A stretch of 64,000 nt of DNA from Spirochaetales bacterium (GCA_016930675.1 JAFGGG010000021.1:38905-102904); one strand, 5' to 3'; numbered from the stretch's first letter, positions 629 through 61,753 are shown. The notes: generated by a model from the sequence alone, not told the origin. Translations and numbers: made by a program.

Positions 629-1372
629 TTAACATCCTGCCAGCTTTTTCATTTTAGCAAGCACCGCGTCACAGTAGCTTCCGTCATCTAAATGAGCTTG
701 AATTTCTCTTATAAACGCCGAACCTACTATTACCGCGTGCACAAAAGGAGCAATTTTTTCGATCTGCTCTCTGGCTGAAATACCGAATCCCGCCAGCACC
801 TTAAGTCCAAAAGAGCCGCATTTATTTAAGAACTGTATATTTTCATCTCCGATCTCGGTAAAAGCGCCTGTTATCCCCTTTCGCAGCGCGGTATACAGAT
901 AAGCGGTGCCAAGGTCGGCTATACCTTTAAGGCGTTTGTCATCGATTGTGGGCGCGATCACAGGTATCACCTCAAGCTCCATAGCGCGTGCTTCCGCGTA
1001 TAATCCTTCATCAGTATCAAAAGGAAGATCGGGTACAATTAGCCCTCTGGCGCCGGCTTTTTTAGTATCGGATAAAAAATTCTTGATGCCTCGAGTATAT
1101 ACCAAATTACAATAGCTCATAATAAAAACCGGAATATCCGTCCGTTCAGTGATTCTCTTTACCAGCTCAAATCCCTTTTCCACTTTAAATCCGCTCATTA
1201 AAGCCGTTGTGCATGCTTCCTGTATCGTAGCACCGTCCGCAGTAGGGTCACTGAAGGGAAATTGAATTTCCAAAAAACCGGCTCCGCCCTGGATAAGAGC
1301 CTTGGCTATGCCTAAACTGGCCTCTCTATCAGGATAATACGCTACCAGATGCGCCATAATCTTATCAGCCAT
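629..1372 (-). CDS. trpA: Tryptophan synthase alpha subunit
   Basis: TrpA-like sequence (TIM-barrel motifs ...GFGIS..., MSYxN). The preferred start is the internal ATG at 1372 (MADKIMAHLVAYYPD), with a GGGAGGTGG RBS 7 nt upstream. It overlaps the trpB stop as TAATG, so the track start at 1405 is probably too long. Confidence 0.9.
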   Translation of the reverse strand: MADKIMAHLVAYYPDREASLGIAKALIQGGAGFLEIQFPFSDPTADGATIQEACTTALMSGFKVEKGFELVKRITERTDIPVFIMSYCNLVYTRGIKNFLSDTKKAGARGLIVPDLPFDTDEGLYAEARAMELEVIPVIAPTIDDKRLKGIADLGTAYLYTALRKGITGAFTEIGDENIQFLNKCGSFGLKVLAGFGISAREQIEKIAPFVHAVIVGSAFIREIQAHLDDGSYCDAVLAKMKKLAGC

Positions 1373-2589
1373 TACTCCACCTCCCGTTTTAAGAATGAGA
1401 ACCACGTTTCTTTATCTATGGCCTTTGCTAAAATAAACAGATCCTTATCCCCTCTGCCCGACATATTCACTATGATCGTCTTATCTTCAGGGTACTGTTT
1501 GGCTATTTTTAAGGCGAGCGCTCCGGCATGCGCCGATTCCAATGCGAATACTATGCCTTCATGCTCGGCAAAAAACCGCACCGCATCCAACGCTTCCTTA
1601 TCCGAAACCTCGATAAATTCAATCCTGCCGCTGCTCCCAAGAAAGGCAAGCTGCGGCCCGATGCCGGGATAGTCCAATCCGGCGGAAATGGAATGAGTGG
1701 GCAGTACCTGTCCGTCCTCATCAAGCAGGAAGTGTGATTTATATCCCTGCACAATGCCGGTTTTTGCCAATCCGGTCATACGCGCGGCATGTTCTCCCGG
1801 GCCTTTTCCCCTTCCTCCGGCCTCGGCACCGATGAGGCGCGGCTTGGTTTTTTCCAAATAGGGATAAAAGAAACCGATCGAATTTGATCCTCCTCCCACA
1901 CAGGCGATAAGCGCTTCCACATTCAATCCCTGTTTATCGATTTCCGCCTCCACCTCCCGTCCGATTATACTCTGGAATTCACGTACCATGTCGGGATATG
2001 GTGAAGGTCCTAGTGCCGAACCCAACAGATAATGGGTCGTGGGAAAGCTTGACGCCCAGTCACGCAGCGCCTCATTAACCGCGTCTTTAAGCGTGCGCGA
2101 GCCGCTTTTTACCGGCACCACCTCGGCACCGAACAACTCCATCCAGAATACATTAGGTCTCTGTCTGGCCATATCCACTTCACCCATGTACACTCTGCAC
2201 TCTAGGCCCAACTTGGCGCACATGGCGGCGGCGGCAAAACCATGCTGGCCTGCCCCGGTCTCCGCAATTATTCGCGTTTTACCCATCCGTTTGGCCAAAA
2301 GCCCTTGACCCAGCGCGTTATTAATTTTATGAGCTCCGGTATTGGCCAGACCTTCAAGTTTAATATAAATATGCGCGCCGCCGATTTTTTCTGTAGAGTT
2401 CTTGGCATAAAGCAGAGGAGTGGGTCGTCCGATATAGTCTCTGGCACCTAAAGCAAACTGCTCCTGAAACTGTTTATCGATAATAGCCTCTCGGTATGCG
2501 GTTTCCAATTCATCCAAAGGAGTATGCAGGATTTCCGCAACATAGCGGCCGCCGAACCGGCCGAAAAAGTTATTATAATACTTGTGCAC
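1372..2589 (-). CDS. trpB: Tryptophan synthase beta subunit
   Basis: Strong TrpB similarity (FGxFGGxYVxE, GAHKxN PLP-lysine region, GGGSNAIG). The likely start is GTG at 2589, with an AAGGAGA RBS 7 nt upstream, 17 nt inside the end of trpCF. The track start at 2670 would overlap trpCF by 98 nt. Confidence 0.88.
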   Translation of the reverse strand: MHKYYNNFFGRFGGRYVAEILHTPLDELETAYREAIIDKQFQEQFALGARDYIGRPTPLLYAKNSTEKIGGAHIYIKLEGLANTGAHKINNALGQGLLAKRMGKTRIIAETGAGQHGFAAAAMCAKLGLECRVYMGEVDMARQRPNVFWMELFGAEVVPVKSGSRTLKDAVNEALRDWASSFPTTHYLLGSALGPSPYPDMVREFQSIIGREVEAEIDKQGLNVEALIACVGGGSNSIGFFYPYLEKTKPRLIGAEAGGRGKGPGEHAARMTGLAKTGIVQGYKSHFLLDEDGQVLPTHSISAGLDYPGIGPQLAFLGSSGRIEFIEVSDKEALDAVRFFAEHEGIVFALESAHAGALALKIAKQYPEDKTIIVNMSGRGDKDLFILAKAIDKETWFSFLKREVE

Positions 2590-4006
2590 GTTCGATCTCC
2601 TTGAAATAGTGTGTGAGCTTCTCCGAATCTTTTTTACCGGGTTCCGCTTCCAGTTTGCTGGATGCGTCAATTAATTCAGGATTAAAGCGTGTAATAATTT
2701 CATGTATATTATGCGGTCCAAGCCCACCGGCCAGCCACAGTGCCGTGTGTTCCTTTGTCCTAAAAATCAATTCTTCAGAAAGCCTATGCCCTGTTCCGCC
2801 GCGCGCAGCTTCGGCATAGGCATCAATCAACACCCGCGGACAACGGTAGCCGGTTAAAGCGTCAACATCGCCCTTGGTTCTCAATTGAACCGCTTTATAG
2901 TAAGGAAAAGCGGCAGCAAAACAGGCAGCCGGCTGCTCATCACCGTGGAACTGAACGGCATCAAGATATTGCTCTTTAAGCAGTTTGCTTACCTGAGGAT
3001 CAATATCCGCATGGGCTTTGCACACCACGACTCCGACTTTTAGAATATCCAAATCCTTTAATTTATAAAGCAGCGAAATGTCTGCCTGTCGCGGTGAAGG
3101 GGCAAATATAAAACCCAATGCATCCGCTCCCAATCGTGCGGCGCGTTCCGCATCCTCTGCCCGTGTAATACCGCAGATTTTTACCAGAGGCCTGCCCTGC
3201 TGTTTACGCGAATAAAGTTTTTCCCAGAAGCTTCCCGCCTTAAGGGAATAGGAGGCCTGTATTTCTGCAATACATTCGGGATCACGCATAACTGCTTCTC
3301 CCACCAAAAGAGCGCTGAATCCTGAACTCAATGCAAAAAGCGCGTCCTCCTTGGACCAGATTCCCGATTCGAATACCAAATGAGTGTCCCATGTTATTCC
3401 CCGCTTTATTAAAAGCGGCAAAGTCAGATCCACTTTAAACGTGGAAAGATCGCGTGAGTTAATCCCGGTAAAGCGGGGTTTTAAATCAGCGGCCTTTTTT
3501 ATGTCAGCGTCGTCATGCACCTCAAGCAATACCGCCAATCCCAGCTCGCGGGCTTCCGTATATAAGACGTGCAATTGCTTTTTAGAGAGAATCGAGGCGA
3601 TAAGCAGTATCGCATCCGCACCCGCGCGGTGAGATATATGAATGTCTTCTTTTTCCAGTAAAAAATCCTTGCGCAATACGGCAAGATCCGGATAAGCCCT
3701 TTTTATATTGATAAGATCACCAAGTGAGCCTGAAAAATAATTGGGTTCGGTGAGCACGGATACCGTTTTTACTCCCTTTCCCGCGTAAACTCCCGCCTGC
3801 TGCACGGGATCCTTGTGCCGGGCGATATCTCCCTTGGAAGGCGAGCTGCGTTTTACCTCGCAGATTAAAAAAGGCGAGCGGTCGAACCGCGCAACCGGCA
3901 GATTACGTTTTTCGGGCACCGGACAGCCCAAGGCGAATCCTCTTTCCGCGATACACTTTCTTCGTTTCTGAACAATCTCATCTCTTATATTCATATAATG
4001 ATCCAT
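2573..4006 (-). CDS. trpCF: Bifunctional indole-3-glycerol-phosphate synthase / phosphoribosylanthranilate isomerase (TrpC-TrpF fusion)
   Basis: 477 aa. The N-terminal IGPS domain and C-terminal PRAI domain (KICGITRAEDAERAARLGADALGFIF) are the same fusion as E. coli trpC. Confidence 0.9.
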   Translation of the reverse strand: MDHYMNIRDEIVQKRRKCIAERGFALGCPVPEKRNLPVARFDRSPFLICEVKRSSPSKGDIARHKDPVQQAGVYAGKGVKTVSVLTEPNYFSGSLGDLINIKRAYPDLAVLRKDFLLEKEDIHISHRAGADAILLIASILSKKQLHVLYTEARELGLAVLLEVHDDADIKKAADLKPRFTGINSRDLSTFKVDLTLPLLIKRGITWDTHLVFESGIWSKEDALFALSSGFSALLVGEAVMRDPECIAEIQASYSLKAGSFWEKLYSRKQQGRPLVKICGITRAEDAERAARLGADALGFIFAPSPRQADISLLYKLKDLDILKVGVVVCKAHADIDPQVSKLLKEQYLDAVQFHGDEQPAACFAAAFPYYKAVQLRTKGDVDALTGYRCPRVLIDAYAEAARGGTGHRLSEELIFRTKEHTALWLAGGLGPHNIHEIITRFNPELIDASSKLEAEPGKKDSEKLTHYFKEIERAQVL

Positions 4007-4012
4007 ACATTA

Positions 4013-4094
4013 TCCCTCACAGAGCTCACAAAGAATACGGAGAAACAATATAATTTATATCTCTGTGTCTTCTGTATGCTCCGTGAGAAGCTTT
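4013..4094. repeat. Intergenic imperfect inverted-repeat element, copy A (CTCACAGAGCTCACAAAGAATACGGAG ... CTCTGTGTCTTCTGTATGCTCCGTGAG), between trpGD and trpCF
   Basis: The two ~27 nt arms are related as an imperfect inverted repeat separated by an AT-rich spacer. The reverse complement of this block aligns closely with 54178-54256, and more loosely with 59977-60037. Confidence 0.6.
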
Positions 4095-4102
4095 TTAAAT
4101 TA

Positions 4103-5701
4103 TTAACTCAACTCCTTACTCACCTTTATAATAGTTTCTAATGTAGACTTTACTTTTCCGCTATCCAAAGCGTCTTTGGCAATCTCATAACCCGCTTTTA
4201 TGCTTTCCGCTGTTTTTGAGATATACAGCGCGGCTCCCGCGTTAAGCAGCACACAGTCCCGGATGGCTTCTTTACCTTTACCGTCCAGAATTTCTCTGGC
4301 CAATTGAACGTTCCGCATGGCATCTCCTCCTAAAAGCTCTTCCTGAGTATAAAGCTTGATGCCGACCTCTTCCGGTTGGAACAGGTATTCCCTGTCATCC
4401 CCCTTTTCATTAACCTCCACAATATGGGTGGGACCCGATACGGACACCTCATCCACACCGTCCAATCCATGCACCACCATGACATTCTTTACTCCGAGCA
4501 TATGCGCCGCCTGCGCTTCGCTTTTACATAAATCTTTTGCGTAAATTCCGATAAGCTGCATCTTGGCTTCCGCCGGATTGGAAAGCGGACCTATCAGGTT
4601 CATAATGGTCTTCATGCCCAGCTCTTTACGCACAGGAACAGCATGCTTCATGGCTCCATGGTAAGCGGGAGCAAAGAGAAAGCAAAAATTGGTTTGTTCC
4701 AGCAGCCGGCAGGCCGCATCCGGTTTTAGATCGATGGTTATTCCCAGCTCCTTATAAAAATCCGCGCTTCCGCACAGCGAGCTTACCGCACGGTTACCGT
4801 GCTTGGCAACCGGAACACCGCAGGCGGCCACCACCAACGCCGCGAACGAAGAAATATTGAAGGTGCCTAACCCGTCACCGCCCGTTCCGCACATATCTAT
4901 AGCCGACTGTTTGGTAGGCAGAGGTACCTTCTTTTTTTTCAACACAGACGCAAAACCGGCTATCTCTTCCGATGTATAACCTTTGCAGTTAAGGGCTATT
5001 AAAAATCCAGCGACCTGGGAATTGTTTAAATTGCCTTCAGTTAACTCTTCCATAAATCCCTGCGCCTGTTCAAAACTCAGAGCTTCCAGCCTGGTTAGTT
5101 TAGAGAGCATTTCTTTAATCGGGTACGGTTCACGGTGGTAGTAGAGAAAGTTATTCAAAAGCCTCTTTCCGAACTCACTTGCTATGGATTCGGGATGAAA
5201 CTGTACTCCTTCCACAGCATACTGTTTATGGCGGATACCCATAATCTCCCCGTCATCCGCGTACGCCGTAATCTCAAACTCAGGCGGCAGGGTGCCCTTC
5301 TTTATGGCTAAAGAGTGATAGCGGGTAAAATCGGATTTTTTGGGCAGATTTCTGAACAGACCTCTGCCGTCCAGACTCATTGACTCCACTTTGCCATGCA
5401 CGATTCTTTTTGCGCTTACTATTTCCGCGCCAAAGGCGGCCCCGATACACTGGTGGCCCAGGCAAACTCCCAGAATAGGAATCTTGCCCGCGAAGTGCTT
5501 TACCATATCCACCGAAATCCCGGCGTCAAGCGGAGTACCGGGGCCCGGTGAAATGATAATAGCTTTGGGGTTTAAACTCTCTATTTTTTTAATATTGATT
5601 TTGTCATTGCGAAATACCTCTACCGGTTCGGGCGTAAGCTCGCAAATATACTGATAAAGGTTATAGGTAAAAGAATCATAATTGTCAATTATTAAATACA
5701 T
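4103..5701 (-). CDS. trpGD: Anthranilate synthase component II (glutamine amidotransferase) fused to anthranilate phosphoribosyltransferase (TrpG-TrpD)
   Basis: N-terminal class-I GATase (GVCLGHQ catalytic Cys, HPES) and C-terminal TrpD (GTGGDG..., KHGNRAVSS). Its start is 3 nt after the trpE stop. Confidence 0.92.
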   Translation of the reverse strand: MYLIIDNYDSFTYNLYQYICELTPEPVEVFRNDKINIKKIESLNPKAIIISPGPGTPLDAGISVDMVKHFAGKIPILGVCLGHQCIGAAFGAEIVSAKRIVHGKVESMSLDGRGLFRNLPKKSDFTRYHSLAIKKGTLPPEFEITAYADDGEIMGIRHKQYAVEGVQFHPESIASEFGKRLLNNFLYYHREPYPIKEMLSKLTRLEALSFEQAQGFMEELTEGNLNNSQVAGFLIALNCKGYTSEEIAGFASVLKKKKVPLPTKQSAIDMCGTGGDGLGTFNISSFAALVVAACGVPVAKHGNRAVSSLCGSADFYKELGITIDLKPDAACRLLEQTNFCFLFAPAYHGAMKHAVPVRKELGMKTIMNLIGPLSNPAEAKMQLIGIYAKDLCKSEAQAAHMLGVKNVMVVHGLDGVDEVSVSGPTHIVEVNEKGDDREYLFQPEEVGIKLYTQEELLGGDAMRNVQLAREILDGKGKEAIRDCVLLNAGAALYISKTAESIKAGYEIAKDALDSGKVKSTLETIIKVSKELS

Positions 5702-5703
5702 AG

Positions 5704-7119
5704 CTAAACCTCCAAACCAACGGCTTTTTCCATAGCCTTTAATTTATTCTCTGTTTCTTCGAATTCCTTTTCCGGAACCGAATCATAGACAATTCCCGCG
5801 CCGGCCTGCAGCACCAGTATATCTTTTTTCTTAAAACCGCAGCGAATGACAATACAACTGTCAAGATTGCCGTTCGGCTCCATATAGCCGACGATCCCCG
5901 CGTAAAAGCTGCGCCGCATTTTTTCTAATCCATCCAACACTTCAATCGCTTTGATCTTGGGCGCGCCGGAAACCGTTCCTGCGGGGAAGGTGGCCCGGAT
6001 GGCGTCGGCCCCTGTTTTTTCCGGTTTTAAATCACCCACTACTTCGGAAACAATGTGCATGACATGTGAATAACGTTCTATACCCATACTCTCGGTCACC
6101 TTCACGGTACCTGCTTTGCATATTCTTCCGATATCATTCCGGGCCAGATCAACAAGCATCAGATGCTCGGCCAGCTCCTTTTCATCGGAGAGCAGATCTT
6201 TTTCCAGGGACTGTTCTTCAGCCTGTGTTTTTCCCCGCTTACGGGTTCCGGCTATGGGTCTGATTAAAACCTGACCGTTTTTCACTTTAACATGGATCTC
6301 GGGTGAAGCACCGAAAAGCTGAAAACTGCCGCAGTCGATAAAAAACATATAAGGCGAAGGATTGAATGAGCGCAAGTTTCGGTAGGCATCCATGGCTGTA
6401 AGATCGGTTCGGATATATACCCTGCGGGAAAGTACACCCTGAAACAGGTTTCCCTTTATAATTTCCTCCCTTACCCGCTCAACTCCTTGCATGTAATCCT
6501 GTTTGTCCTGAGGATTGTGAATTATTTCAGATGTATATTCCTTTTTTGTCGAGGTCATAAAATTAAAATCCAAATCGTTTATTCTCTCTTCTATCTGCCT
6601 GAAAGCTTCATTAAGATCGATGGCATGTTCCTTGTAATTCAGACCCAGCAGGATTATGGTATCCGTATAGTGATCAAAAATGACAAAAATATGTCCGAAC
6701 AAAAACAATGCATCGGGAATATTCAGATCATCCGGTTTTTGCATCAATTTGATAGTATCGAAGTGGCTGCAAAACTCATACGTGATATAACCTAATCCTC
6801 CGGCGGGAAAGGGGAAGTCATGTATCACATCCTTGTGCTGGTCCGCGAAGTAAAGAAGCGCGTCCAGAATATCCCTGCCCTGGCTTTTTATCTTAAAATT
6901 CTTATTGTTTTTTCTGAGGAATATACTGTTGCTTGTCTGGTACACTCTGAATGCCTCTTTTACCAGCATGAGCGACCAGCGCTGTCTGCCTTTGGCAAAC
7001 GAAGCCGATTCCAGCAGTACCTGGGCTTCGAGTTTTGTGGCCAGAGTATAGGGAGTAAACCTCTCCCCGTTTAAGGTTTTTATGATACAGTTGGAAAATG
7101 TTTTTACTGCTGTACTCAA
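5704..7119 (-). CDS. trpE: Anthranilate synthase component I
   Basis: TrpE chorismate-binding motifs are present (LVDLARNDIGR, GAPK, GAGIV). A strong AAGGAGG RBS precedes the ATG at 7119. Confidence 0.92.
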   Translation of the reverse strand: MSTAVKTFSNCIIKTLNGERFTPYTLATKLEAQVLLESASFAKGRQRWSLMLVKEAFRVYQTSNSIFLRKNNKNFKIKSQGRDILDALLYFADQHKDVIHDFPFPAGGLGYITYEFCSHFDTIKLMQKPDDLNIPDALFLFGHIFVIFDHYTDTIILLGLNYKEHAIDLNEAFRQIEERINDLDFNFMTSTKKEYTSEIIHNPQDKQDYMQGVERVREEIIKGNLFQGVLSRRVYIRTDLTAMDAYRNLRSFNPSPYMFFIDCGSFQLFGASPEIHVKVKNGQVLIRPIAGTRKRGKTQAEEQSLEKDLLSDEKELAEHLMLVDLARNDIGRICKAGTVKVTESMGIERYSHVMHIVSEVVGDLKPEKTGADAIRATFPAGTVSGAPKIKAIEVLDGLEKMRRSFYAGIVGYMEPNGNLDSCIVIRCGFKKKDILVLQAGAGIVYDSVPEKEFEETENKLKAMEKAVGLEV

Positions 7120-10618: not shown

Positions 10619-10760
10619 GAGGTCACATCGCCGTATTAGAAAAGAATCATAGTAAATATACAAAACACACAAGCTTCATAGCACTCTAGGTTTTTATGGC
10701 TTTTATCCGGTCCACACCTCGCCTTAACATTTGAAAAAAGATTAATATTCATGCAACACT

Positions 10761-11243
10761 ATGAAAAGAGTATTAACGGCGATCTTCATACTATTACCAT
10801 TGCTTAGCGCCTGCTCTGAAAGCGAGAACAGTAATGATATCAGAAACATTCACATTATGATCCTCACCATGAAACATAATTTCCCGATTCGCAAAGACAA
10901 AGTGTGTCTTTTCGGTTTTACCTATTTAAACAACACAATGCTTTTAGCTAACATAGAAACCGTATAGGCCCGGTAACTTTTTAATGTCTTTATAACAGGT
11001 TACGGCGGCTCAGGCTTTTTACTGGACAAATATATAGCGATGGACATGATCCCGGAAGGATTAAAAATACCGGGATTAATATTTTGGGGAGAAAAAGCAG
11101 TTGCCAAAACTGCTAAAAGCGTAGCCGAGTTTTTATTACGTCAGGGCTGGGATATCACCACCTGGCGACATGATGGTTGGAATTTTGTTAGAGAAGATAT
11201 AATTTTAAAATCTTTTGACTGGCTGGAAAAAAAGATTCCATAA
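10761..11243 (+). pseudogene. Probable disrupted small lipoprotein gene: two ORFs (10761-10967 and 11040-11243) lie in the same frame, separated by a single TAG at 10965
   Basis: ORF1 has a signal peptide and lipobox (LLPLLSAC). Reading through the TAG gives a continuous ~160 aa frame (…IETV*ARVTFNVFITGYGGSGFLLDKYIAMDMIPEGLKIPGLIFWGEKA…). The C-terminal part resembles the end of an alpha/beta-hydrolase fold. Confidence 0.35.
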
Positions 11244-38480: not shown

Positions 38481-41400
38481 TTATCCACTAAATGCTACTA
38501 CTCTGTCTCCTCCGAGTATCAATGTATTACCATGACACTTCGGACAGGTTATATTTTCAAGAGAGTTAGCCTTTTCACAGCAAAAACCACAATTTTTACA
38601 TATTACACTTTTTGCTTTATATAATGCAATGTCTGCCATTTTAATCAAAAGCGAGCCAATCTCAATTTTATATTTTCCTATTCTTTCCCAATCCACATCA
38701 GCTGGTTTTTTTATTTCATAGATGCTTTTAAGAGTATCTATTTTCAGCATATCACATATATACTGTGCATTGTCTTTTAATGAGGCTACACCAAAACTCG
38801 CGGACATTGCTATTTTTCTTTTTTCATATTTTATGTCATACTTTTTTATTTTTTCTTTCAGTGTTTGAGCAACAATCAGGGCTTGTTTTAGATTAGTATC
38901 CGGTAATATTATCAGAAATTCATCACCACCGTATCTTCCGGCTTGATCATATTGTCTTATCGATGAAGTCACCAGTTTTCCGACGGTCGTGAGTATTTTA
39001 TCTCCCGCCTGATGATCAAACGTATCGTTATGAATTTTAAACGAATCAATATCAAAAAATATTACCGATACATCTCTATACCTTCGAACGGACAGCTCAT
39101 GACTCAAATTATTAAAAATAACTCGTCTGGTATAGAGGCCGGTCAATTCATCTATCATTGCCAGTTGAAATATTTTTAAATATTCAAAATACTGTTTTAA
39201 ATGCTGTTCAACTGTTAATAGGAGATCCTTTTCATCAATTGGTTTCGTTAAATAAGCAGAAGCACCTTTTTCTCTCCGCTCTATCATAATTTTATCATCA
39301 GCAATGGCTGATAAAAATATAAATGGTATATATCTAAATTTTGGATTATTTAATATTTCATCATGAAATTTATCACCTTTCATATGAGGCATATTAAAGT
39401 CGCATAATATTAAATCTGGAGAATATTCATATACAGCATCAAGCCCTTGTTTACCGTCTGTGGCAAGAATGAAGTTTACATAGTCATAATTAATCAGATA
39501 ATTCATTACAATCTTTCTGATACTTGTATCATCATCAATAATCAATATTTTAGCTTTTTTATAATTAAATTCATTTTCTTTATTTAACTCCCTAAAGTTG
39601 ATTACAATCTCCTGTCGCTCCAACTTCTTCTGTAAATCGTACTCGATAATTACTTTTTCTTCCTTATATTTTTTTAAAGGTGGCTCTACCCTTAAAAAAT
39701 CTTTTTCATTAAATATATCTCTCCCTTTTTTAAGCTCAATAATAAATTGAGCACCCTTGCCTTCTCCTTCTGATTCAGCCCAGATCCGACCTTTCATGTA
39801 TTCAATAAGCTGTTTTGCATATGACAAGCCGATTCCCGTTCCTCTAAACACTTTTATATTTCCACTATTATGCGCCTGTTCAAATCTGTTAAAAATAACA
39901 CGCAATTTATCTTTTGCTATGCCGATGCCATTATCAGTAACTCTTATTCTTATGGTGTTCTTCTGCTCTGTCAGTTCCACAGTTATGACACCCTTCTCCG
40001 GATCGACAAATTTAATTGCATTTGACATAATATTATGAATAACTTCATCGAATTTCTCTATATCCGTATAAAGATTTTTAATTTCATAATCAGGCAATTT
40101 TCTTAATATTTTAATACCGCTTCCCACAACCGATGATGAATAAAAATTGATTACACTGTTAAGCAAAGATATAATATTTACCCTACTTACGTTTAATGTA
40201 ATACCGTGTGCGTCTATCTTGGCGAGATCTAGCAACCTGTCTATTGATTTCCTTAACCGCAAAGATGCGGAATAGATAGTATTATAATTTTCCTGATTTT
40301 CTTCCGGGCTTTGTTTATCAAATTTTAAAGCCAAATCAGTAGTGTTCAAAATGGCCGTTAATGGCGATCTAAAATCATGTGTTATGTTGGCGATAAAATC
40401 ATTTTTCAAAACATCAAGTTCTCTTAATTTTTGATTTGCCTGCTCCAATTCTTCCTTTGCCTTTTCTAAATTAATCGTCCGTTCTTTTACCTTGATCTCC
40501 AACTCTTCCGAATACTGTTTTATTTCATTTATAAGTTCTATACTTCTTAAAGCGCTGCTTATTTGAACCGACAGGGATTCATAGATTGCGCCATCCATAA
40601 AACCTATTTCAAAGATGACGAAACCAATTTGAATATCCTTATAGAATAATGCCATTACAAGAAATGAGAATCTTTTTTCAATTTTAGCCAATATATTGGC
40701 TAAAAGCTCATCAGCTTTACCTGTTTTAAACACATCAGGAATTGTATTATTTTCATTTTTGTAGAATAATAGCTTAGCGTCTTTTCTTTTGTCATACGTA
40801 TCAGTATAGGCGCACATATAATAACTATTAATCCCCAGCTTAGGAAAAACTTCAGATAATGTGTTTATTAATATATTTATATCAAAAATAGAAATAAGTC
40901 TTTCGTTTACCTGATATAATACTAAAATCTGATTCCTATAACTGACTTTTATATCTAATTTTAAATGATCAATCATTTCTCCGATACTGACAAGGGATGT
41001 GCTGTAAAGTTTTTCAAGATAGCGTCTCTCACTAGTGTTAATATAATCATAAAGCGTACTAAATACCTTGGAAATTATTTTATACCAGCCATATACATCC
41101 ATGCCTTCGTGTATCCCTTGTAGGATTATGTTCTGCAGTCGATCAAAAAATCTGGAATCCGACTTCTCCTTAATACTGGTTAATGTTGCTTCTATGAGAT
41201 CTTTTGCCCATTTGATTCTTTTTTCTTTGCTTATCAAGCTGACACAATGGACTTCGATTTCATTTTCAATCGCATTTATGATTGATTTCTTCTCTTCAGG
41301 CGATGATAAGTGTTTTTTTATTAGTTTTTTTGTTTGTTTATTGTAAATGGCATATTCAAATATCCTACTACACCCGCAAGACTGTTGAATGATCACTTTT

Positions 41401-52897: not shown

Positions 52898-54160
52898 ATG
52901 GCAGATTTTCAATCACTTTCCCATCAGGATAAACAGCAATTGAAGGATTCTTTACAGAAGCGCATCAATGAGTATAAAGCGCAGGTCTTACAGCTGGATA
53001 TGACCCGCGGCAAACCAGGACCGGAACAGCTTGATATCTGCAATGATCTTTTAACCTGCGTGGATGAAAACCACTTCATGACGGGGGGAGGAGTGGATAC
53101 CCGTAATTACGGGATTTTAGACGGAATCACGGAAGCAAAAGAACTTTTTGCGGATTTTATGGGCGCAGCTAAAAATGAAATAATCGTCGGAGGTAACTCC
53201 AGCCTCAATATGATGTACGACATTTTCGCCCAACTCATGACACACGGCAGCTCTACAGACAGTACGCCATGGTTCTCGCGTAAAAAGAAGTTCATCTGTC
53301 CGGTACCGGGATATGACCGTCACTTCACTATCTGCCAGCGTTTCGGTATTGAGATGATCAATGTGGATATGACAGAGTTTGGTCCTGATATCACCATGAT
53401 CGAGGAGCTTGTTAAAAATGACGGCGATATTGTGGGTATGTGGTGCGTGCCGCGCTACAGCAATCCTACCGGGTACACCTGTTCCTCTGAAATTGTTGAA
53501 CGCCTGGCGGCCATGCCAACCAAATGCAAAGACTTCCGGATTTTTTGGGATGATGCCTACGCTGTTCATTTTTTAAATGACGCGCCTGATAAATTGCTCA
53601 ACCTGCTTGACGCCTGTAAAAAAGCCGGTAATCCGGATCGTGTTTTTATTTTTTCTTCGACTTCAAAAGTGAGCTTCCCGGGCGGCGGTGTTGCCATGCT
53701 GGCGGCAAGTGAAAAAAACTGTGCCTGGCTCAAAGAGCGGCTTTTTGCTCAGACCATCGGTCCGGATAAGATAAATATGCTGCGCCATGTTATATACTTT
53801 AAAGATTTGGCAGGCATTTTAAAGCACATGAAAAAACAGGCTAATATTATCGCTCCCAAATTCACGGCCGTGCATGATATTCTTACAGGGGAGCTTGCGG
53901 GAAAAGGAATTGCTTCATGGACCAAGCCCGCAGGCGGTTATTTTATCAGTTTAAACACCTTGGACAATTGCGCAAAGAGAGTAGTCGCTTTAGCGGGTGA
54001 ACTGGGAGTAAAACTCACTCCCGCCGGTGCCACATTTCCATATAAAAAAGATCCCCTCGACAGAAATATCAGAATCGCACCTACCTTCCCCGGCCTGGAT
54101 GATCTTAAAAAAGCCACGGAAGTCTTGGCTGTATGCATTCAGTACATTAGCTTGGGATAA
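52898..54160 (+). CDS. PLP-dependent aminotransferase, class I/II fold
   Basis: NPTG (SNPTGYTC) and the S-x-S-K PLP lysine (SSTSKVSFPGG). Confidence 0.75.
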   Translation: MADFQSLSHQDKQQLKDSLQKRINEYKAQVLQLDMTRGKPGPEQLDICNDLLTCVDENHFMTGGGVDTRNYGILDGITEAKELFADFMGAAKNEIIVGGNSSLNMMYDIFAQLMTHGSSTDSTPWFSRKKKFICPVPGYDRHFTICQRFGIEMINVDMTEFGPDITMIEELVKNDGDIVGMWCVPRYSNPTGYTCSSEIVERLAAMPTKCKDFRIFWDDAYAVHFLNDAPDKLLNLLDACKKAGNPDRVFIFSSTSKVSFPGGGVAMLAASEKNCAWLKERLFAQTIGPDKINMLRHVIYFKDLAGILKHMKKQANIIAPKFTAVHDILTGELAGKGIASWTKPAGGYFISLNTLDNCAKRVVALAGELGVKLTPAGATFPYKKDPLDRNIRIAPTFPGLDDLKKATEVLAVCIQYISLG

Positions 54161-54177
54161 TATATAATTTTATCTTA

Positions 54178-54256
54178 TTTCTCACGGAGCATACGGAGGA
54201 AACAGAGATATTGAGTTTACTTTTTTTCTCCTTGTTCTCTTTGAGCTCTGTGTGAA
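54178..54256. repeat. Intergenic inverted-repeat element, copy B (reverse orientation relative to copy A)
   Basis: TTCTCACGGAGCATACGGAGGAAACAGAGATAT…TTTCTCC…CTCTTTGAGCTCTGTGTG aligns nearly base-for-base with the reverse complement of 4013-4094. Confidence 0.6.
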
Positions 54257-54286
54257 ATTTTATCAACTATTTTTTCGCAATCAACA

Positions 54287-55108
54287 CTATAAATAACTAT
54301 GTGGACCTTCAAGCAAATAACTAACCCCGAACAGAGTAAAAAGCGTAAACAAGAATCCAATTATACAAAGCAAAGCACTTAACTTACCACGCCACTTTCT
54401 GAAAAAGCGGGTATGCAAATATGCTGTATAGGTAAGCCAGGTAATAAAGGCCCAGGTCTCTTTTGGATCATCAAAGCTCCAGTATCTTCCCCAGGCGTGA
54501 CGTGCCCAGATGGCTCCGCAGATCAGCGCCCCCGCGGTAAAAATCAAATAACCGATAACAACAGTCCGGTATAAAAGCTTTTCCAGCTCCTGCTTTTGGT
54601 TATCATCATGCTGCAAAAGATAGATAATGGAAACAACAAAAGCGACCAAGAAAAATGCCTCTCCGATAAAGGCCAGAGACACATGCAGTACCAGCCACAG
54701 GGAACGCAGTTCAGGAATCGGTACGTGTACCGCATCGCGCATAAGCGGGGAAGAGGCGATTGCCAATAATAAAAGGCTGATTAAGCTTCCGCCCAGCACT
54801 ATAAAATGAATTAACTTTTGCACATATATCAACCTATAAATAAAAAGTAAAAGCATGCTTACCGCCGAGAAAAAGACCAAACATTCAACAATTGTGGTAA
54901 GCGCGACAAAACCGATAAGCAGGCTGCGTAAGGCCGTATACAGAAACAGAAACACGGCCGCGCTTAAAAGCAGCCAATGGCTGACAGGATCAGTTTTTTC
55001 TTTACGCTTGATGATATATACAATTTGCACTGAGATCGCCGAGATCTGCAGCATAAAAGCCACCAAGGCGCACACCTTGAGTATAAGAAGCAATGCTCCG
55101 GTTGTCAT
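54287..55108 (-). CDS. ccsA: Cytochrome c biogenesis protein CcsA (System II)
   Basis: Trp-rich WWD-type motif WARHAWGRYWSFDDPKETWAFITW. Polytopic. Confidence 0.8.
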   Translation of the reverse strand: MTTGALLLILKVCALVAFMLQISAISVQIVYIIKRKEKTDPVSHWLLLSAAVFLFLYTALRSLLIGFVALTTIVECLVFFSAVSMLLLFIYRLIYVQKLIHFIVLGGSLISLLLLAIASSPLMRDAVHVPIPELRSLWLVLHVSLAFIGEAFFLVAFVVSIIYLLQHDDNQKQELEKLLYRTVVIGYLIFTAGALICGAIWARHAWGRYWSFDDPKETWAFITWLTYTAYLHTRFFRKWRGKLSALLCIIGFLFTLFTLFGVSYLLEGPHSYL

Positions 55109-58735: not shown

Positions 58736-59941
58736 ATGACTAAAAGAAAAATCTCTATGCCTTTTTGGTGTGTTTCCAATCCTGTGGGAGATCCCTTTGG
58801 ACCGGCGGTAATGGAAAGATTAACATCTCTTGAAGTCTGTGAAATTCTCTGCGATGCAAAAAAGCAGGGATTAATCGATTACACCTCGGCACACGATGAT
58901 GATCTTGTCCCATGGGACGCTGCTCACCCGGAGGATGATCTGGATGAAAGCAGCGCGACCTTTAAAACACTGCAAGAGTTAAAAACCAAACTTCATGCCG
59001 CGGGCCTGAGTATAAATATGATTTCATGTAATTTACACGCTAATACCGTATTCAGAAACGGCGGCCTTACTAATCCTGATCCTGAAATCAGAGCCTTGGC
59101 AGCTCAAAAAGTGATGCGCAACATCCGCATTGCTCACTTTTTAAAGGCCGAGTATATAACCTATTGGGTGGCCCGGGACGGCTTTGAATGTCAATTTTCC
59201 ATTCCCTGGGACAGATGCTATAAATATATTGAAAACGGCCTGAATCTCGCCACCAGATATATTAAACAAAATAATTTCTGCATCAAAGGCGGCACCATAG
59301 AAAGCAAACCGAACGAACCCAGAGGAGAGATGTTCCTGGCCACGACCGGCCATGCCCTCGGCCTTATCAGCCGCCTTGAAGACCCCGACTTTTGGGGAGT
59401 CAATCCGGAAATTCTCCAACATGAAGGCATGACCAATTTGTCGGCCATTAATGCGATCGGTATGGCGATTAACGCCGGCAAACTTTATTTTATCCATTTG
59501 GGGAACCAAAAACCCGGCCAGTTCGACAACGACAGTCCGGTAATGACCGGCATGGATGGAGTAAAGGAGCTTGTCGGTGTGTTGTGGATGATGAAAAAAT
59601 TAAACTGGAATGGTATCATTGAATTTGACAATCACGTTTTACGGACAGACACGGCTCCCGGCAAAAAAAACGCAATTAAAATCAGAAAAGACTTCATTAA
59701 GCACAATGTGGAAAGCTACCGCTTGGCGGAAACAAAAGCCGACCAGATGGCGGAAAACTCAATGCTCAATAAATTATTCTCTGAAATCTGCGACAGACAA
59801 TCGCCGCTTGCAAGTGCATTGGAAAATTATGATTTTGACACCATTGCGAGTTCAAAAATAGATTATGACACATTAAACACGACTCCCGTTAAAATCGCGC
59901 AACTGGATTATGAGGTAAATAAGGCACTGTTGGGACTGTAG
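58736..59941 (+). CDS. xylA: Xylose isomerase, class I (short, actinobacterial/Thermus-type) homolog
   Basis: Collinear with class I XI: PFW…DPFG, AHDDDLVP, IESKPNEPRGE, TGHALGLISRL, GVNPE…HEGMTNL. There are deviations at WGGREG (WVARDG) and HIDLN (FIHLGN). Confidence 0.75.
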   Translation: MTKRKISMPFWCVSNPVGDPFGPAVMERLTSLEVCEILCDAKKQGLIDYTSAHDDDLVPWDAAHPEDDLDESSATFKTLQELKTKLHAAGLSINMISCNLHANTVFRNGGLTNPDPEIRALAAQKVMRNIRIAHFLKAEYITYWVARDGFECQFSIPWDRCYKYIENGLNLATRYIKQNNFCIKGGTIESKPNEPRGEMFLATTGHALGLISRLEDPDFWGVNPEILQHEGMTNLSAINAIGMAINAGKLYFIHLGNQKPGQFDNDSPVMTGMDGVKELVGVLWMMKKLNWNGIIEFDNHVLRTDTAPGKKNAIKIRKDFIKHNVESYRLAETKADQMAENSMLNKLFSEICDRQSPLASALENYDFDTIASSKIDYDTLNTTPVKIAQLDYEVNKALLGL

Positions 59942-59976: not shown

Positions 59977-60037
59977 GCTCACGGATTTGCACGGATAAAA
60001 AAAAGATCCTGTATTAATCCGTGGTTTTCCGTAAGCT
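59977..60037. repeat. Intergenic inverted-repeat element, diverged copy C (CTCACGGATTTGCACGGAT…ATCCGTGGTTTTCCGTAAG)
   Basis: Two direct CACGGAT half-sites 11 nt apart, mirrored by two inverted ATCCGTG/TCCGTAAG half-sites. Shares CTCACGGA…ACGGA with copies A and B. Confidence 0.45.
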
Positions 60038-60103: not shown

Positions 60104-61753
60104 TTATATTTTAAACTGTTGCTCTTCTTTATATAAGAAATAATCGAAATCCGCGTGGCAGTTTGTACCGTTTAAATCCTGGCAGGCAATCCCCGCAAAC
60201 ATACCTGTAAACCCCAGAGGATTAACATAATCATCGGAAAGCACTTTTGATTCCAGAATTGGTCCGATCGCTTTCCAATTCTCTTTATCAACTGAATAGT
60301 GAAACCGGATCTTCTCATAGATCATTTGTACTGCAAGATATACTTTGTCAGTGTTGACCTCAATCTCGGGCAATACGGGCATGGTAAAATTTCTGCGGTC
60401 ATAAACCAGAATACCGAGACTGTTTTTTTCTTCATCATTCTTGCTCATACGCAGATAATATTGATTATTGTCGTCATATCGTAAAATGAGTCCCGCCATG
60501 GTATTAATATTAGCGGGAGTAAACTCTAAGCATGTCTCTGCATAAAAGGTAAAGTCTTGAACTCTTCTGGCAATAAGCGTCTGATAAAAGGGAGATATCA
60601 AGGACTCGCCGCCATATAATCTTATATATCCTTTGCGCTCGGTCAATGACAGCTTATTATTAAGCGGCACGCGTAATGTTTGAAATTCAGGAGCCAGCTC
60701 CTGCTCATTAAAATCCGTAAAGAATTCTCGCTTGTTCTTCTTTTCTACAGCCTGTCCTGAAAATTCCACATGAATTTCAGGTTTATCGGATGCCAGATAA
60801 AGCCAGTCGTCGTCTTTCCATATAACCTTTTGCAGTGCCGTTTCTCTTCCCAACGGACAGTAGATAGAACCGGGAAGCGGCCGTCCGCAAAGATGGGCGA
60901 TAATCCATTCATCATCCTTCCAAGGGCAGATACTGGCATGTCCCGCCTTTTGCAGACCGTTGTGCAGATGTTGCATGGGATTCTTCCCCTGCTGCACACT
61001 CTTTTTAAAACTGGCATGATCTTTTACACCGGTAACAAGAGGATTTTGCGGATGAACTTCATACGGACCGTCAAGATTTCTCGAACGAGCCAGGGTAACC
61101 GCATGTTCATAAGACGTTCCGCCTTCGGCTGTAAGCAGATAGTACCAGCCGTTTCTTTTATAAATGTGGGGGCCTTCAGTTAAACGAATATCAGTTCCCT
61201 TAAAAATATTTTTTACCGGTCCTATTAATCTTTTTCTTTTTTGGTCATACTCTTGTAAAACAATCCCCGCGAATGGATTTCTGCCGACCCTGTAATCCCA
61301 GAACATATTTACCAGCCATTTGCGTCCGTCATTGTCATGAAACAGCGAAGGATCAAAACCGCTGCTGTTAAGATATACCGGTTCCGACCATGGCCCTTCT
61401 ATATTCTTTGCCGTGACAAGATAATTGTGAGTATCTTTAAATCCCGACGCTTCATTGTTAGCACCAATCCATACTTTTGTATTGGTATATATAAGGTAGA
61501 ATAAACCGCTATCATAAGTCAGACAAGGCGCCCATACTCCTCCTGAAGGCGGAATACCGTATAAGTTCAATTGAGATACTCTTGAAAGTGGCCTGGATAC
61601 AAGATCCCAGTTTACAAGATCTTTTGAATGATAAATTTGTACTCCCGGAAACCATTCAAATGTGGAAGTCGCAATATAAAAATTATTGCTCACCCGCAAG
61701 ATAGATGGATCGGGATGAAATCCGGGGAGTATGGGATTTTCTATACGGAGCAT
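60104..61753 (-). CDS. Glycoside hydrolase family 43 (beta-xylosidase/alpha-L-arabinofuranosidase)
   Basis: GH43 N-terminus NPILPGFHPDPSI and a C-terminal beta-sandwich domain. Confidence 0.85.
   Translation of the reverse strand: MLRIENPILPGFHPDPSILRVSNNFYIATSTFEWFPGVQIYHSKDLVNWDLVSRPLSRVSQLNLYGIPPSGGVWAPCLTYDSGLFYLIYTNTKVWIGANNEASGFKDTHNYLVTAKNIEGPWSEPVYLNSSGFDPSLFHDNDGRKWLVNMFWDYRVGRNPFAGIVLQEYDQKRKRLIGPVKNIFKGTDIRLTEGPHIYKRNGWYYLLTAEGGTSYEHAVTLARSRNLDGPYEVHPQNPLVTGVKDHASFKKSVQQGKNPMQHLHNGLQKAGHASICPWKDDEWIIAHLCGRPLPGSIYCPLGRETALQKVIWKDDDWLYLASDKPEIHVEFSGQAVEKKNKREFFTDFNEQELAPEFQTLRVPLNNKLSLTERKGYIRLYGGESLISPFYQTLIARRVQDFTFYAETCLEFTPANINTMAGLILRYDDNNQYYLRMSKNDEEKNSLGILVYDRRNFTMPVLPEIEVNTDKVYLAVQMIYEKIRFHYSVDKENWKAIGPILESKVLSDDYVNPLGFTGMFAGIACQDLNGTNCHADFDYFLYKEEQQFKI

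Follow-up and report, generated by a model that had tools for sequence, protein, structure and literature searches.

We describe here three small intergenic hairpins, designated A, B and C, in a 64,000-nt stretch of DNA from the metagenome-assembled genome of a Spirochaetales bacterium (GCA_016930675.1, JAFGGG010000021.1:38905-102904; the whole stretch is called the window below). The explanation that we favour, and consider probable, is that they are non-autonomous palindromic DNA repeats similar to the repetitive extragenic palindromes (REPs) and to REPINs, and that they represent two sister subfamilies of a single widespread class. The three blocks had been noticed, at the coordinates where we find them, in an earlier reading made without knowledge of the organism (hereafter the sequence-only reading), which listed a REP-like element or a miniature inverted-repeat transposable element (MITE) among several options. 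This option is now the best supported one, given the common descent of A and B, the degenerate middle units that they share, their absence from the orthologous sites of the closest relatives and the presence of related elements in many phyla. The three hairpins are as follows.

4014-4089, minus strand: copy A, an imperfect hairpin of 76 nt with three CACRGAG-type units per arm at a period of 9 nt
54177-54258, plus strand: copy B, the same element as A in the opposite orientation, as judged from alignment, fold and a model built from A and B
59977-60036, minus strand: copy C, a member of the sister CACGGAT subfamily whose hairpin arms each have two units (period of 12 nt)

Copies A and B descend from one ancestral sequence. 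On the minus strand, A reads TTCTCACGGAG-CAT-ACAGAAG-A-CACAGAG ... loop ... CTCCGTA-T-TCTTTGTG-AG-CTCTGTGAGGG, and on the plus strand B reads TTTCTCACGGAG-CAT-ACGGAG-GAA-ACAGAG ... loop ... CTCCTTG-TT-CTCTTTG-AG-CTCTGTGTGAAA. Together they constitute the two longest inverted repeats of the window (56 nt at 73% and 50 nt at 80%). The local alignment of A (minus strand) with B (plus strand) has a score of 77, as against 14.6±2.5 for shuffled sequences, none of which reached 77 in 2000 trials; the observed score thus lies about 25 standard deviations above the shuffles. About 60 of the 74 alignment columns are identical, including the uninterrupted runs TTCTCACGGAGCATAC, ACAGAGATAT, TTTCTCC and GAGCTCTGTG. 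The sequence-only reading had described B as almost the exact reverse complement of A: the two are indeed copies in opposite orientation, but at around 80% identity they are far from exact. The inner units of B are degenerate, yet B aligns with A, and both copies share a degenerate second unit (CATAC) as well as the loop-proximal ACAGAGATAT/TTTCTCC blocks. A covariance model built from these two copies gives scores of 106.9 bits for A and 101.2 bits for B.

RNA folding confirmed that each copy can form an imperfect hairpin, as had been proposed. The predicted folds of the three copies are long, with free energies of -19.7 to -32.1 kcal/mol, z-scores of -3.5 to -6.0 and loops of 16-20 nt; the most stable is that of A on the minus strand (-32.1 kcal/mol, z -6.0), and B reaches -30.1 kcal/mol on the plus strand. 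The spacing of 10-11 nt previously attributed to the half-sites has to be corrected, the measured periods being 9 nt in A and B and 12 nt in C. Copy A is found unchanged in an independent Logan assembly of the same sample (contig L001, 11606-11692) and is therefore not an assembly artefact. The word CTCACGGAG, searched with one mismatch, occurs nine times in the window for 5.7 expected occurrences. Since this word alone is not enriched, the signal lies in the arrangement of the units and not in the word itself.

Copy C belongs to the sister CACGGAT subfamily of the same class. It reads GCTCACGGAT-TTG-CACGGAT ... ATCCGTG-GTTT-TCCGTAAGC and had previously been regarded as a diverged copy of the same element as A and B, a view that our data do not sustain. 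Its plain alignments with A and B are not significant (scores of 14-19, as against 14±2.3 for shuffled sequences), and the A/B covariance model assigns it 15.2 bits (E=0.25), a value equal to that of a generic AT-rich hairpin; only the architecture is common to the three copies. The same score was obtained for a short, perfect and AT-rich hairpin located at positions 39666-39706 of the window (minus strand), AAAAAGAUUUUUUAAGGGUA ... ACCUUUAAAAAAAUAU, which is probably an ordinary terminator-like stem unrelated to this family. The assignment of C comes from the arrangement of its heptads. The pattern that it matches (CACGGAT, 2-6 nt, CACGGAT, 10-40 nt, ATCCGTG) was found in 71 stretches of the viral_contigs collection, many of them in multiple copies and typically of the form ACCACGGATGAACACGGATGAACACGGAT ... 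ATCCGTGTTCATCCGTGTTCATCCGTGGT, as against none when the last heptad of the pattern was exchanged for its non-complementary reverse. The CACGGAT and CACRGAG subfamilies can coexist in one genome, for example in the present window and in Treponema UBA3813.

A, B and C are members of a large and cross-phylum class of hairpin repeats. We defined this class by arms of at least two direct C[AG]C[AGT]GA[GT] units with a period of 8-12 nt, placed in inverted orientation with CACRGAK towards the loop; the heptads of one arm are separated by 1-5 variable bases and the loop is variable. Only two non-coding clusters of three or more such heptads exist in the window, A and C (0.46 clusters expected), and all three blocks exhibit the majority polarity of the heptad. 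Elements with the same layout as A and B were recovered with a loose hairpin pattern from viral_contigs in the high-GC contig L015, where one reads TCTCACAGAG-A-CACAGAG-C-CACAGAG ... CTCCGTG-C-CTCTGTG-C-CTCCGTGAGAGA. A pattern describing a single arm (TCACRGAG, ACRGAG and ACRGAG with gaps of 1-4 nt) matched 83 stretches in viral_contigs, some of which may be bacterial since IMG/VR 'viral' contigs may include bacterial fragments, and at least 119 in genome_contigs. The genome_contigs matches listed come from more than a dozen phyla. They include Treponema, Leptospira sarikeiensis, Spirochaetaceae, Longimicrobium and other Gemmatimonadota, Planctomycetota, Verrucomicrobiota, Acidobacteriota and Sorangium, together with Anaerolineales, Chloroflexia, Saprospiraceae, Ignavibacteria, Kiritimatiellae, Neisseriaceae, Burkholderiales, Rhodocyclaceae, Cyanobacteria and others. 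Members of the class itself were seen across Planctomycetota, Acidobacteriota, Gemmatimonadota, Chloroflexota, Proteobacteria and Cyanobacteria, and in phage-like contigs.

The mere number of triple-heptad arrays is no evidence, because two permuted-motif controls were equally frequent (at least 120 and 109 stretches). An inverted partner arm was present within 200 nt for 75 of 128 genome matches and 37 of 129 viral matches, compared with 0 of 127 and 3 of 112 for the two controls. With controls so close to zero, it is the fraction of hairpins, and not the number of arrays, that discriminates the real motif. The A/B covariance model additionally retrieved elements of Treponema (53.9, 50.2 and 30.9 bits), of a Spirochaetaceae metagenome-assembled genome (42 bits) and of Leptospira sarikeiensis (41.8 and 39.5 bits), with scores of 20-54 bits overall for elements from these groups and E-values of 1e-11 to 1e-7. 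The copies of rumen Treponema follow the plan of the A/B alignment and even have in common with it the degenerate middle right unit followed by GCTCTGTGAG. When consensus sequences of the class were compared by BLAST with annotated phages and plasmids, only a few partial and unannotated matches resulted. Literal class sequences retrieved nothing relevant from the literature apart from unrelated eukaryotic primer matches, and an earlier description may exist in literature that this search did not cover; the class is apparently undescribed so far. Solo heptad arms are present in intergenic DNA of two cyanobacterial plasmids, those of Nostoc sp. UHCC 0870 (L462, 1495-1545; CCACAGAGGCACAGAGAACACAGAG) and of Gloeothece PCC 7424 (L533, 590-640; ATCCGTGTTCATCCCTGTTCATCTGTGG). 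Both arms are unannotated, and the two hosts are cultured and could serve for experiments.

Several properties are common to the class. Among loci found with the orientation-neutral single-arm pattern, facing arms with CACRGAK towards the loop outnumber the opposite arrangement by 82 to 12, and facing pairs outnumber direct pairs by 82 to 30. In the scan of the whole viral_contigs collection with CACGGAT, 71 stretches had this polarity and 7 the reverse. Paired units of the two arms carry the same base (G or T) at heptad position 7 in 208 of 210 cases. Arms contain 2-8 units, most often three (419 of 496 arms), a count whose lower bound is partly a matter of ascertainment since the scan patterns required two to three units. 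Class hairpins are mostly intergenic (52 of 60). According to heuristic calls of open reading frames (ORFs), on which all gene-context statistics of the class are based, the 43 intergenic hairpins with a called gene on both sides lie between co-directional (27), convergent (9) or divergent genes (7). Spacers, period and loops are common to the copies within one genome, indicating that the whole hairpin is the repeated unit. Target-site duplications were absent from 62 class elements, identical flanks of 2-6 nt being at or below the permutation expectation. The neighbours of class loci belong to generic families only (ABC ATPases, histidine kinases, GGDEF/EAL proteins, Ser/Thr kinases), and no protein is shared by more than four of 20 element-rich groups of viral contigs. 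We found no transposase between distant inverted arms in the sampled loci, and the cargo ORFs located there gave no informative Pfam matches.

Solo arms were found upstream of genes in a phage-like genome, in a Spirochaetaceae chromosome and in the Nostoc plasmid, and tandem right arms also occur. At homologous intergenic sites of two related phage-like genomes, the heptads are CACAGAG in one case and CGCAGAG or CGCAAAG in the other, in all units and in both arms, which indicates concerted evolution or re-invasion.

L104, 460-490, 785-830 and 1820-1990: sites homologous to L051, 570-600, 1340-1460 and 2566-2963, with CGCAAAG or CGCAGAG heptads in L104 and CACAGAG in L051

The phage-like genome of L051, which has terminase and portal genes in L087, contains further repeats. 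Long arrays of contiguous heptamers (TATCCAG/CATCCAG/TAACCAG and AATAACN) are located just upstream of two genes (1346-1668 and 10693-10925); they adjoin solo CACAGAG arms and another repeated module, CGCAGCAGGAACGGCGAAGG, and resemble cyanobacterial short tandemly repeated repetitive (STRR) sequences or TAACTGA-type repeats. A GC-rich mini-hairpin of ~40 nt, CCCGCCTGCCTCGCGTTGCGAAGCATTGCGGGCAGGGG, lies within a heptad arm at 419-597 and 4224-4448, in opposite orientations, and looks like a second, nested small repeat. In the Spirochaetaceae chromosome OZ245056 (L199, 1181-7300), an intergenic module of ~440 nt is repeated at intervals of about 1.5 kb, each time in front of paralogous hypothetical genes (234-281 aa, no Pfam matches). 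This module holds back-to-back CGCAGAG arms, a solo CACGGAG arm and CACGAAA / TTCGTGG repeats.

The gene context of the three blocks is that given by the sequence-only reading, with A between trpGD and trpCF and with B and C each between convergent genes.

1372-7119, minus strand: trp operon, with trpE, fused trpGD, fused trpCF, trpB and trpA
4103-5701, minus strand: trpGD, fused anthranilate synthase component II and phosphoribosyltransferase (NF011201, 775 bits), with its stop codon 13 nt before hairpin A
2573-4006, minus strand: trpCF, fused indole-3-glycerol-phosphate synthase and phosphoribosylanthranilate isomerase (IGPS/PRAI), directly downstream of A
52898-54160, plus strand: aspartate aminotransferase (type Ic), with its 3' end 16 nt before hairpin B
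54287-55108, minus strand: ccsB-like cytochrome c assembly gene, convergent with the aminotransferase gene, with its 3' end 28 nt after hairpin B
58736-59941, plus strand: xylose-isomerase-like TIM-barrel gene (AP_endonuc_2), with its 3' end 35 nt before hairpin C
60104-61753, minus strand: GH43 glycoside hydrolase gene, convergent with the TIM-barrel gene, with its 3' end 67 nt after hairpin C

The spacer between trpGD and trpCF measures 96 nt in the window, and A is missing from the corresponding junction in three relatives.

Relative with 89% TrpGD identity: trpGD-trpCF spacer of 24 nt, no A
Relative with 86% TrpGD identity: trpGD-trpCF spacer of 11 nt, no A
Relative with 74% TrpGD identity: trpGD and trpCF overlapping by 4 nt (spacer of -4 nt), no A

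The two genes nearly overlap or do overlap in these three relatives, the 96-nt gap of the window being the exception. Similarly, a block of 132 nt containing B is missing from a relative whose aminotransferase is 86% identical and in which the convergent aminotransferase and ccsB genes abut, and another relative with an 83%-identical aminotransferase also lacks the element. In the nearest relatives, the spacers housing A and B are either lacking or far shorter, so that each copy was acquired after the separation of these lineages. Judged from these comparisons, A and B are lineage-specific insertions and not conserved regulators. For C, no orthologous empty site was found, the candidate gene in a relative being only 25% identical. 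Comparison with the empty site revealed no evident target-site duplication at A. An imperfect TATAWAT is present at the insertion borders of B, where it is indistinguishable from the AT-rich background.

In the trp operon, the 3' end of A appears to supply the ribosome-binding site of trpCF and, according to the predicted fold, would also sequester it.

4014-4018, minus strand: GAGGG, a Shine-Dalgarno (SD)-like sequence forming the base of hairpin A on its 3' side and preceding the trpCF ATG (4006-4004) by 7 nt

The predicted fold pairs UUCUCACGGAGC with GCUCUGUGAGGG, so that the GAGGG pairs with UUCUC. In a relative, the trpCF start is preceded by AGAGG-TTAT-ATG; this SD is gone in the window, where the trpCF ORF starts four codons (MDHY) earlier. 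Insertion of A may thus have displaced the old ribosome-binding site of trpCF, leaving the GAGGG of the hairpin foot in SD position. A ribosome terminating at the trpGD stop codon, 13 nt ahead of the stem, would reach the stem base, and translation of trpCF may depend on ribosomes that open the stem of A when they finish trpGD. This model suggests an enforced translational coupling of trpGD and trpCF at hairpin A. In a phage-like genome, the right ends of the elements read CTCTGTGAGAGATAATTATG at several gene starts, forming the same junction as at trpCF. We rejected the right ends of elements as a general source of ribosome-binding sites, since the distances between elements and downstream starts do not cluster across the class.

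The class can be compared with several known systems. Like REPs and REPINs, the three copies and the class elements are small imperfect intergenic palindromes, often located after stop codons or between convergent genes; class elements occur singly, in inverted pairs or in clusters, have neither target-site duplication nor coding capacity, and combine a genome-specific sequence flavour with a short motif common across phyla. Two REP superfamilies are defined by a terminal tetranucleotide, GTAG or CGTC (PMC3733652). Neither tag is found on A, B, C or the class elements, whose ends are TTCTCAC...GTGAGRR in A and B, GCTCAC...GTAAGC in C and TCTCAC/AACCAC...GTGAGA/GTGGTT in the class. The arms of class elements consist of two to four direct heptads instead of a simple stem. 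Class elements are 60-100+ nt long; the 60-82 nt of A-C resemble the size of REPINs more than that of a single REP (20-40 nt). Another difference is the frequency of the class in phage-like contigs. No gene for a REP-associated tyrosine transposase (RAYT, Y1 HUH) was seen, neither among the genes called over ~58 kb of the window nor at 128 class loci, although a single-copy gene may lie elsewhere in the genome; the precomputed Pfam annotation of the same ~58 kb contains no transposase, integrase or HUH protein. With MITEs, Correia, BOX and RUP elements, the class shares a non-autonomous nature, inverted repeats at the ends that fold into a hairpin upon transcription, a variable presence among relatives and the capacity to supply expression signals to neighbouring genes; BOX elements also vary in the number of internal modules. 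In contrast to these genus-limited elements, the class is cross-phylum, lacks target-site duplications in the 62 elements mentioned above and has no parent insertion sequence with matching ends in the sampled loci.

The nearest published analogue that we found is provided by the TAACTGA repeats, intergenic heptamers of Beggiatoaceae, Cyanobacteria and Bacteroidetes (PMC4679880). Both TAACTGA/STRR repeats and our class have a 7-base unit repeated two to six times in intergenic regions, sometimes directly upstream of start codons, and both are scattered across phyla, with neither a means of transfer nor a binding factor known. However, TAACTGA units are contiguous (period 7), with 169 direct sets as against one indirect set in the BOGUAY genome (PMC4679880), whereas the units of our class are spaced (period 8-12; 9 in A and B, 12 in C) and mostly form inverted pairs of arms. 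The attC sites of integrons are likewise imperfect hairpins of variable length that flank individual genes, with short conserved boxes in each arm and a variable centre. They differ in that A, B and C have no RYYYAAC/GTTRRRY core sites, the boxes within an arm are direct and not inverted, there is no integron integrase or cassette array, and the neighbours of A-C are housekeeping genes. Finally, intrinsic terminators are also hairpins found just downstream of stop codons and between convergent genes. However, the stems described here are long (25-30 pairs), AT-rich and sequence-specific, their loop is large and one copy lies inside an operon. CRISPR, attC, CIRCE-like operators, RNA repeats of the TRAP/HutP type and MraZ boxes were set aside for mismatches in motif, period or context. 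A match to a known family, an alternative that the sequence-only reading had left standing, was not obtained either. Rfam 15 gave no match for the window at gathering scores, and its E-value mode only returned miRNA-like matches of ~22 bits, compared with thresholds of 87-102; no known REP tag is present on the ends of A-C. In eight element-rich class loci, Rfam matched only an unrelated Acido-Lenti-1 RNA and a tRNA. This Acido-Lenti-1 RNA (54 bits, threshold 37) is located at positions 3218-3263 of L040, an IMG/VR contig with CACGGAG hairpins, and suggests an Acidobacteria or Lentisphaerae origin of that contig.

Alternatively, the heptad arrays could be binding sites of a conserved multimeric DNA-binding protein (for instance a ribbon-helix-helix or AbrB/MraZ-like protein reading three to four direct repeats), with a regulatory or architectural role and no mobility. 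The conservation of the heptad across phyla while spacers and loops vary, the predominance of three units per arm (with the ascertainment noted above), the period of 8-12 nt, the solo arms upstream of genes and the fixed polarity are all consistent with such a protein. Nevertheless, we consider this explanation unlikely: close relatives have neither A nor B at the corresponding sites, so that there is no conserved regulation of these genes, the functions of the neighbouring genes have nothing in common (trp, aminotransferase, cytochrome assembly, sugar metabolism), the repeated unit is the whole hairpin including its loop, and no candidate protein co-occurs with the elements in 20 element-rich contig groups. 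Protein binding and mobility are not exclusive, because a mobilising enzyme would also be a binding protein. It is a little less likely still that the elements act as RNA, either as bidirectional terminators, RNase III-type processing sites or 3'-end stabilisers, or, in the trp operon, as an intercistronic hairpin controlling processing or translation. Strong folding (z down to -6), the location of all three blocks just after stop codons, and the junctions at the starts of trpCF and of the phage-like genes could be explained in this way. So could an asymmetry of A and B, in which the sense strand of the upstream gene is the one with G-U pairs in place of A-C pairs. This asymmetry is probably a coincidence, since no strand bias exists across the class: in the 27 co-directional cases, the more stable RNA strand is sense in 9, antisense in 12 and neither in 6, and G-T and A-C mismatches at the R position of the heptad are symmetric (20 vs 19). 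The terminator scan revealed no T-tract and no terminator-like call at A, B or C, whereas a relative's contig (L534, 13900-13960) carries a textbook bidirectional intrinsic terminator with GC stem and T-tract, AAAAAAAGGCTGCC...GGCAGCCTTTTTTT, showing that canonical terminators are present in this clade. The hairpins located between divergent genes (7 of 43) also count against a role as RNA. As for the structured RNA module of the trp polycistron that had been suggested initially, the lack of the element in the trp operons of three relatives, of Rfam matches, of T-tracts and of a strand bias all argue against it.

We give low credence to another possibility, in which the hairpins are not mobile and arise in place from slippage-prone heptanucleotide repeats followed by fold-back (template-switch) duplication, their likeness reflecting the same mutational bias. 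Heptanucleotide repeats are the commonest long simple repeats in bacteria according to Mrazek (2007), as summarised in PMC4679880, and both the variable number of units per arm (2-8) and the differences in all units of both arms at homologous phage-like sites would fit this scenario. It does not account for the non-heptad sequence and the imperfections common to A and B, which are 50 kb apart, or for the loops common to copies within other genomes. In addition, permuted heptads form tandem arrays equally often but almost never hairpins, fold-back synthesis alone does not predict a polarity bias of 7:1 to 10:1, and the two empty sites suggest that whole elements were gained at previously empty sites. 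It is highly improbable that the likeness of the three copies is fortuitous, bringing together unrelated terminator-like hairpins, even if C has no significant alignment to A and B and CTCACGGAG with one mismatch is not enriched. For A and B, this is already refuted by the alignment score and by their rank as the top inverted repeats of the window, and the A/B model also finds elements of other spirochaetes. The permuted and non-complementary controls speak against chance as well; in the case of C, CACGGAT hairpins are commoner than the non-complementary control. The sequence-only reading had envisaged this very outcome, with no further copies and three hairpins alike by chance; this is not what was seen, and related elements exist in other spirochaetes and in many further phyla.

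Returning to palindromic repeats related to REPs and REPINs, one can propose a DNA-level copying of the element into new intergenic sites, carried out by a trans factor that recognises heptad arrays. The lack of target-site duplication would point away from a DDE-type transposition of MITEs and favour a mechanism that uses a single-stranded hairpin or recombination. Slippage or conversion could homogenise the number and sequence of the heptads inside each element. The consequences for host genes would be secondary: the element would be co-transcribed and form a hairpin of -28 to -32 kcal/mol. We infer that a conserved binding protein is the simplest explanation of a heptad found across phyla, and here our proposal overlaps with that of protein-binding sites.

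Several observations weigh against this interpretation. Mobility is deduced from two empty sites in species that are 11-26% diverged at the protein level, from which the exact ends and target cannot be read, and no A/B copy is present in ~45 kb of non-redundant sequence from these relatives. The window contains only two alignable copies and one cousin in 64 kb, and the ~20% divergence of A and B gives no sign of recent bursts. The pattern CTCACGGAGCATACN{30,55}GCTCYGTG had no match in genome_contigs and TCTCACGGAGCATACRGARGA had none in metagenome_contigs; these collections do not include the source genome, and even the window copies were not returned. No protein family recurs beside the elements in 128 class loci, and no mobilising enzyme was found there. 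Solo arms are common (252 of 496 arms under a strict criterion), some of them directly upstream of start codons. Finally, selfish spread by itself leaves unexplained the retention of the same heptad from phylum to phylum, with spacers and loops that differ.

Within the window itself, the implications are modest: A and B are insertions and not conserved trp regulators. If the class is indeed undescribed, it represents a common intergenic feature of poorly studied phyla and of phage-like contigs, one that annotators leave blank or may mistake for a terminator. The cross-phylum heptad, its fixed polarity and the tendency towards three units suggest that a specific factor acts on the elements in trans. 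A bolder proposal, which we regard as possible but doubtful, is that CACRGAK hairpins form a third superfamily of palindromic repeats beside the GTAG and CGTC REPs. In this proposal, a widely conserved protein would propagate or bind them, reading three direct heptads per arm with a fixed polarity in more than a dozen phyla and in their phages, and the elements would time and again have been recruited as ribosome-binding sites or intercistronic signals, trpCF being one case. The trp operon can also be viewed as a dated natural experiment, in which a tightly coupled junction was split by a hairpin of 72 nt and trpCF apparently adopted the end of the element as its ribosome-binding site.

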